A stretch of DNA of 64,000 nucleotides from IMG/VR virus record IMGVR_UViG_3300032319_000326, positions 1-64,000 of that record; one strand, given 5' to 3'. Below are positions 4,641 through 4,763 of this stretch, piece after piece (position 1 is the stretch's first letter; the number at the start of each line of letters is the position of its first letter). The notes below the pieces were generated by a model. It worked only from the letters and a program-made list of their open reading frames with translations. It did not search any database and was not told the DNA's origin. Source of the DNA: a virus. Lineage: Duplodnaviria; Caudoviricetes. Both the position numbers and the translations under genes were made by a program.

Positions 4641-4763
4641 TCCAGTGTAGCTCAATGGTAGAGCATGCGGCTGTGGGCCATAAAGTATTATTTAATAGAG
4701 AGTGCAAATCTCACAAGGCCAAAGTTAACCGCAGGGTTGGGGGTTCGATGCCCTCCGCTGGAG
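4641..4763 (+). tRNA. tRNA-Asn(GTT) interrupted by a 51-nt insert in the anticodon loop
   Basis: TCCAGTG/CGCTGGA acceptor, G73; TGCGG-CT[insert 4673-4723]GTTAA-CCGCA. Confidence 0.8.

Follow-up and report, generated by a model that had tools for sequence, protein, structure and literature searches.

The window analysed here covers the first 64 kb of an IMG/VR viral contig of 91.7 kb, which was rated ~30 % complete. At positions 4641-4763 (plus strand) it carries a gene for tRNA-Asn(GTT) with four canonical arms, in which a stretch of 51 nt separates C32 and U33 (4671-4672) from G34, U35, U36, A37 and A38 (4724-4728) of the anticodon loop. The 5' exon (4641-4672) is made up of an acceptor part (4641-4647), the D-arm (4650-4664), one side of the anticodon stem (4666-4670) and the loop bases C32 and U33, and the same or a nearly identical exon is found in insert-free alleles. 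The 3' exon (4724-4763) starts with the remaining loop bases and continues with the anticodon stem (4729-4733), the variable region (4734-4738), the T-arm (4739-4755), the acceptor part (4756-4762) and a discriminator G (4763), after which this allele encodes no CCA. A sigma-70-type promoter (TTGACA, 18 nt, TG-TATAAT; plus strand, 4547-4576), assigned by its match to the consensus at 12 of 12 positions, is located 65 nt 5' of the gene, and tRNA-Asn is the first tRNA after this promoter. ARAGORN, when introns were allowed, reported a tRNA-Asn [4641,4764] with anticodon gtt and a 51-nt intron at gene position 34; the gene was missed by ARAGORN in its default setting and by Rfam. The sequence-only reading of this DNA had held that removal of the 51 nt restores a canonical tRNA-Asn(GTT), and the ARAGORN intron call and relatives with an empty site agree on this. 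The boundary ambiguity of GT noted in that reading was also borne out: GT is repeated at both junctions, and the insert can therefore be written as 4673-4723, 4674-4724 or 4675-4725 (plus strand), leaving the junction free by 2 nt, between 33/34 and 35/36. The register 4674-4724 places it at 34|35. Hereafter the insert is given as 4673-4723, to be read with a possible shift of 1 or 2 nt. It contains no ORF. The gene is, as had been stated earlier, the only conventional tRNA-Asn in the window, being the sole ARAGORN tRNA-Asn there and in the whole 91.7-kb contig, which covers ~30 % of the genome.

The boundaries of the insert are real, because four relatives (L007, L008, L038 and L076) have the same exons with CT directly joined to GTTAA. 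A retrieval of relatives via a neighbouring ORF yielded four insert-bearing loci and four others in which the gene is present and its site is cleanly empty. The same 51-nt insert was found in 26 distinct contigs from many samples, taken from IMG/VR, JGI metagenome contigs and a genome collection; 25 of these were aligned and the 26th came from the genome collection. This refutes the possibility, considered at first, that the insert is unique to this assembly. Every copy resides in one gene and at one site. An exact scan of IMG/VR and an exon-anchored scan allowing a gap of 30-60 nt returned the same 14 contigs, and no other 30-60 nt insert was found in the IMG/VR tRNA-Asn genes with this 5' half. 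A second copy or fragment of the insert was not found elsewhere in any retrieved locus, where low-stringency BLAST gave chance words only, and a collection of phage GenBank records contained generic tRNA matches and no relative. One carrier, a 2.9-kb piece (L125, DORI01000202.1), was binned in a metagenome-assembled genome of a member of the Crocinitomicaceae (Bacteroidota). This is a weak hint at a Bacteroidota host, with which sigma-70-type promoters fit poorly.

Among the 25 aligned carriers only 2 of the 51 insert positions are variable, compared to 11 of the 72 exon positions (four haplotypes) and 25/30 and 26/30 positions in the two 30-nt flanks (eight contexts). The exon sets of the carriers differ by 15 %, and the exon differences closest to the insert are found at distances of 6 and 9 nt. 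The commonest exon pair also occurs without the insert, in 6 contigs with identical exons. Since the insert is nearly invariant on exons that have diverged by 15 %, its transfer between alleles must postdate the divergence of these alleles. The exon changes preserve the cloverleaf in all carriers except one hybrid (L086). The allele shared by the window and L014, for example, differs from the common allele at both bases of one pair, where A6-U67 has become U6-G67 and the acceptor stem is kept. The 51-nt insert is thus a mobile, site-specific and gene-less DNA element that shows presence/absence polymorphism.

The prevailing view is that the tRNA introns of bacteria and of bacterial viruses are all self-splicing. 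We know of one report of short non-catalytic inserts in phage tRNAs, in the Lak megaphages in 2019, and of no explanation for them. The Lak tRNA introns are identical across cohorts and present or absent between genomes, and one of them is tRNA-like (Devoto et al. 2019, Nat Microbiol, PMC6784885). These introns are the closest published precedent of the insert in tRNA-Asn, as both are short and ORF-less inserts in phage tRNAs, near-identical wherever present and absent from some relatives (PMC6784885). The Lak introns however come from gut Prevotella megaphages and not from a freshwater jumbo phage of ~296 kb, and they interrupt another tRNA with an unrelated sequence; furthermore, the Asn insert is only partly tRNA-like, unlike the one Lak case, and for the Asn insert there are contigs from RNA libraries that bear on splicing. 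A mechanism for such mini-introns in phages was not found in the literature. The Asn insert is a member of the 'enigmatic phage tRNA intron' kind.

One relative that carries the insert, G001, is a complete genome (295,831 bp; 100 % by CheckV). It encodes an RNA ligase of the T4 Rnl1 family (L120:7504-8595; PF09511, 57.7 bits, above cut-off) and, 4 kb past the ligase gene, an AAA_33 kinase (L120:11972-12427; 92 bits), so that a phage-encoded Rnl1-family ligase and a polynucleotide kinase, the two parts of a T4-type repair kit, are present in the same genome. Both genes are located within a few kb of a second tRNA array; a phosphatase domain or partner for the kinase was not identified in G001. 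Among carriers the ligase and kinase are known from G001 only, as the ~30 % complete contig of the window has no ligase and ten partial relatives miss the region. RtcB (PF01139) and the tRNA splicing endonuclease EndA (PF01974) were absent from five related records, the complete genome included, in searches that were positive for archaeal controls. Thus, of the sealing enzymes that had been considered for this locus, an Rnl1-type ligase accompanied by a kinase was found in an insert-bearing genome, and RtcB was not found in the five records.

With these enzymes in mind it is tentatively proposed that the 51-nt insert is an intron that is removed by proteins and resealed by the Rnl1/kinase kit, a reading to which we give a little less than an even chance. 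In the precursor, the tRNA body would fold normally and the insert would project from the anticodon stem. It would be released by two cuts at the base of its closing helix. These cuts would fall inside the anticodon, most economically at 34|35, which is the site of two other mini-inserts in this group of phages (see below), and the tRNA body would hold the exon halves together after cutting. The phage kinase would heal the ends if needed, and the Rnl1-type ligase would seal them. At the DNA level, the insert would have spread via gene conversion, triggered by the homing endonucleases for which free-standing genes lie beside the tRNA gene in several relatives. If this is true, a T4-style repair kit doubles as a splicing kit, and a phage tRNA is perhaps matured by the same type of cut that host anticodon nucleases inflict. 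In the T4 system, the host enzyme PrrC cuts tRNA-Lys 5' of the wobble base, after which Pnkp and Rnl1 heal and seal the break. G001 likewise encodes an Rnl1-family ligase plus kinase, and the insert junction lies where such ligases act; the T4 system however repairs damage and is not known to excise inserts. The insert may also serve to mask the anticodon.

The sequence-only reading had suggested that the insert is cut out by tRNA-processing nucleases and that the gap is sealed by a phage ligase. A suitable ligase indeed exists in G001, but the cutting half of this suggestion finds little backing. The combined geometry of RNase P and RNase Z leaves a one-base 3' overhang, and the registers open to the insert give blunt ends or overhangs of 2 or 4 nt. 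RNase P/Z excision fits poorly because no allowed register yields a one-base stagger, and trimming of the RNase P/Z type is, at best, an unlikely cutting activity.

Two further mini-inserts were found in tRNA genes of these phages. G001 carries at 280832-280943 (L120:832-943), 7 kb from its Rnl1 ligase gene, a tRNA(CAU) with a 35-nt hairpin insert. This tRNA is uninterrupted in 11 relatives, and comparison with these sets the insert between C34 and A35; in the register chosen by ARAGORN itself the interrupted gene is read as Lys(CTT). No relatives of the 35-nt insert were found in IMG/VR. A more distant phage that also encodes Rnl1 (L168; 62 % identity with the Rnl1 of G001) carries a tRNA-Leu(UAA) (L168:14-123) that a hairpin of 34 nt interrupts at U34|A35. 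Both hairpins start with UUUC and finish with GAA or GAAG, and neither has sequence in common with the Asn insert. That three unrelated inserts can all be placed at 34|35 may hint at a rule acting at the RNA level, with the caveat that ARAGORN searches for introns in the anticodon loop only, which biases this coincidence. As a separate observation, the insert in tRNA-Leu(UAA) of L168 has U|...G| boundaries and sits at a group I intron site, yet it is far too short for a group I intron.

The region of the gene is partly present in six riverine metatranscriptome runs, four of which (X15, X16, X17 and X18) were examined. In X16 and in X18, one contig each joins 4672 to 4724 and thereby skips exactly 51 nt, and k-mers of the insert were absent from both runs. 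The skipped contig of X18 is ~8 times deeper than the downstream spacer. In X15 and X17 the insert-bearing form is present at a depth close to that of the neighbouring spacer (10.9 vs 8.8 and 3.3 vs 4.9, respectively), and no joined form was found in these two runs. Each river library thus contains a single form only, and the joined contigs retain unprocessed spacers. The X16 contig has a 2-nt insertion after 4611, linked substitutions and ~80 extra bases at 4631/4632, a signature of the haplotype that has a second, non-canonical tRNA-Asn located 8 nt upstream, and the skipped contigs of X16 and X18 are both assigned to this haplotype. The 16 contigs of this haplotype from sources other than the river project (7 from IMG/VR and 9 from lake and other metagenomes) all bear the insert. 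Within the river project, two multi-kb contigs of this haplotype (L093 and L096, from RNA or DNA assemblies) are insert-free, and L007 and L008 are insert-free DNA alleles in the window's own context. The 51-nt skip shows the pattern expected of splicing and is equally explained by insert-free strains. Because there is one form per library and because L093, L096, L007 and L008 are insert-free, the RNA data are a lead and not a result. Contigs furthermore cannot reveal ends or minor forms, and several bins are without cover in all four runs. Mature tRNA-Asn cannot be assessed from these runs, because mature canonical tRNAs are barely seen in them. The fuller claim, that splicing is real, that the river contigs are its first trace at the RNA level and that a protein-only route cuts at 34|35 before Rnl1 reseals the exons, is given somewhat less than an even chance.

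A quite different account, which we consider a serious possibility with a somewhat less than even chance of being correct, holds that the insert is not spliced at all. It would have entered the anticodon at the DNA level, spread by endonuclease-driven gene conversion and been tolerated in a spare tRNA copy, and its presence possibly destroys the site at which a homing endonuclease encoded nearby would cut ('collaborative homing'). The RNA would then be a dead tRNA, or else a scaffold of tRNA shape on which the insert is displayed, in the manner of other tRNA-derived RNAs of the array. Several findings suit this account. A second intact tRNA-Asn(GTT) is present in the retrieved loci of 22 of the 26 carriers; the contig of the window is however among the four without one. 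The encoded CCA is missing in 11 of the 26 carrier alleles, belonging to two haplotypes and including the allele of the window, compared to none of the 6 insert-free alleles and 1 of 45 other tRNAs of these phages, 44 of which encode CCA. The GT repeat at the junctions could be a 2-bp target duplication. The single form per river library, with insert-bearing contigs at the depth of their flanks and lacking a joined partner, suits it too, and fixed tRNA-like RNAs with inserts occur elsewhere in these arrays (a Phe-like unit with 30 extra nt and a 197-nt unit, described below). The failure to find a known splicing enzyme or ribozyme likewise suits it.

Homing endonuclease genes were found near the interrupted gene in part of the carriers. 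ORFs resembling GIY-YIG(+NUMOD3) lie directly upstream of it in L006 (L006:3188-3883) and L012, and an HNH-like ORF lies upstream in L020 (L020:4284-4760, minus strand), all with Pfam scores below cut-off. Outside this Pfam scan, L022 has the upstream sequence of L006, L125 ends in a comparable ORF tail, and L026 has the same flank as L020. This brings the number of carriers with an adjacent gene to only 6 of 26, which speaks against the unspliced account. The tRNA array of the window itself encodes a Vsr-like nuclease (DUF559/REase_MTES_1575; 292 aa, 9778-10656) and an HNH nuclease (185 aa, 11449-12006). Such free-standing nucleases are typical of homing endonuclease traffic and may be the cause of the cassette-like shuffling of tRNA genes. 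In collaborative homing, as known from cyanophages, an ORF-less intron in psbA is paired with the free-standing endonuclease F-CphI. In such a layout the insert shields its gene from the endonuclease next to it and is carried through the population regardless of any benefit. The Asn insert resembles this system in being ORF-less, in having endonuclease genes beside the interrupted gene in several relatives and in its transfer into diverged alleles. The psbA intron is however a self-splicing group I intron, and an adjacent endonuclease gene accompanies the Asn insert in a minority of carriers.

Taken together, the spare tRNA-Asn, the loss of CCA and the adjacent endonucleases argue against a need for splicing. 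On the other side, the exons form perfect cloverleaves in 25 of the 26 carriers, paired changes included, and three different tRNAs have mini-inserts that can be placed at 34|35, within the anticodon loop to which ARAGORN confines its search. The absence of the skipped form from the extra-tRNA haplotype outside the river RNA project (0 of 16 contigs) also weighs against an unspliced insert. Should the insert prove to be unspliced, selfish inserts can be parked in redundant tRNA genes of phages by homing endonuclease traffic, and phage tRNAs called with an 'intron' should be left out of the count of working tRNAs. Splicing of the insert, if it takes place, would add a third type to the tRNA splicing known from bacteria and their viruses. 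The locus is favourable for deciding the question, as it offers a tiny element, natural insert-free alleles with identical exons, many freshwater samples, a complete genome with an Rnl1 ligase plus kinase, and public metatranscriptomes showing both forms.

It was also considered whether the insert is a self-splicing or self-cleaving RNA of very small size and of a type not yet described. The near-total invariance of the insert would be in keeping with an RNA that depends on each of its bases. A fold predicted for the insert consists of a three-way junction (4676-4720, plus strand) with a 4-bp GGCC/GGCC closing helix (4676-4679/4717-4720), a hairpin made up of A and U only (4681-4694) and a second hairpin (4698-4714) with a T-loop-like heptamer (4703-4709). 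This fold is however no better than that of shuffled sequences (z = -1.5), and the alignment offers no covariation. With the insert alone as query, Rfam returned no family at E<=10, tRNA and all small ribozymes included, and the Rfam search of the array gave no match for the insert. Bacterial group I introns do occur in anticodon loops of tRNAs, for example in tRNA-Leu(UAA) between U34 and A35. They have a length of ~200 nt or more, a conserved catalytic core and U|...G| boundaries. Like these introns the Asn insert is a mobile element within the anticodon loop, and one of its registers sets it at 34|35. It counts only 51 nt, however, has no Rfam match, lacks the conserved core and has no register in which both the U| and the G| boundary are present. 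The earlier statement that it is far too short for a group I or group II intron is supported. As the other two mini-inserts are moreover unrelated to it in sequence, a small ribozyme is regarded as very improbable.

The same fold bears on the likeness to a tRNA minihelix that the sequence-only reading had seen in the insert. In favour of this likeness are the GGCC/GGCC helix, the two predicted hairpins and the heptamer TGCAAAT, a loop in one register, which is the T-loop of tRNA-His in the relative L016. The most common substitution in the insert, C to T at 4714, changes G-C to G-U in the T-arm-like register and keeps the pairing. The fold score and the missing Rfam match count against it, so that the tRNA-likeness appears weak, consisting of the closing helix and the T-loop-like heptamer. 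The proposed similarity of the 5' end of the insert to tRNA-Asp at 5326 did not hold up, as it is within chance (71 of 2000 shuffles when compared to that gene alone) and this tRNA-Asp is not the best match within the array. Independently, a hammerhead-like combination of CUGACGAG and GAAA in the leader was rejected as it is without Rfam support.

Protein-spliced tRNA introns of Archaea and Eukarya are recognized by a bulge-helix-bulge (BHB) motif, are cut by EndA/Sen and sealed by RtcB or Trl1, and have their canonical site at 37/38. They are short, not self-splicing and located in the anticodon loop, and follow the same cut-and-ligate logic as proposed here for the phage. The only ligase found in the phage group is however ATP-dependent and of the Rnl1 type. 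By inspection, no register of the Asn insert provides two 3-nt bulges with a spacing of 4 bp and a junction in each. An intron of this BHB type, handled by a splicing endonuclease and RtcB, has the position in the anticodon loop and the short length in its favour, but with no BHB in any register and no tRNA_int_endo or RtcB domain in the five records it can be given hardly any credence. An error of assembly or sequencing, or a miniature transposon of a generic (MITE-like) kind, has nothing but the 2-bp repeat at the ends to recommend it and is practically ruled out by 26 independent contigs from many samples that have the insert always at one site of one gene, with no partial copies and with ends that share only the GGCC palindrome, although a 2-bp duplication could account for the GT repeat.

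Other unusual RNAs are encoded in the same arrays. At L016:4281-4384, and as homologues in ~15 loci, a fixed tRNA-like unit is found whose anticodon loop holds an insert of 30 nt. It has a canonical T-arm, an 8-bp terminal helix and no CCA. ARAGORN reports it as a tRNA-Phe with an intron, and an ordinary tRNA-Phe(GAA) adjoins it. The window contains at 5641-5837 a tRNA-shaped unit of 197 nt with CCA and a 7-nt loop that includes GTT and lacks U33. At the variable position this unit has a domain of 125 nt, which is kept in L004, L005, L076 and L026; no domain-free allele was found. At 3684-3759 lies a tRNA with an 8-nt anticodon loop, read by ARAGORN as a 4-base anticodon ctct or as tRNA-Gln with a 3-nt 'intron', and it occupies the same array position in L016, L020, L076 and L090. 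Nearly every tRNA of these phages is followed by an encoded CCA and then a T-run (44/45; window 3500-12600 and G001 190-201 kb), and G001 has a tmRNA at 190382-190766. Finally, the stretch 4446-4621 of the window, which spans the promoter at 4547-4576, corresponds to a very abundant RNA in the river runs, with a depth of up to ~2250 compared to 0-35 for neighbouring canonical tRNAs. A contig of 73 nt is an exact match to 4453-4525, a weak tRNA match (Rfam, 23.7 bits), and in X18 a sequencing adapter after 4621 marks the end of a fragment.
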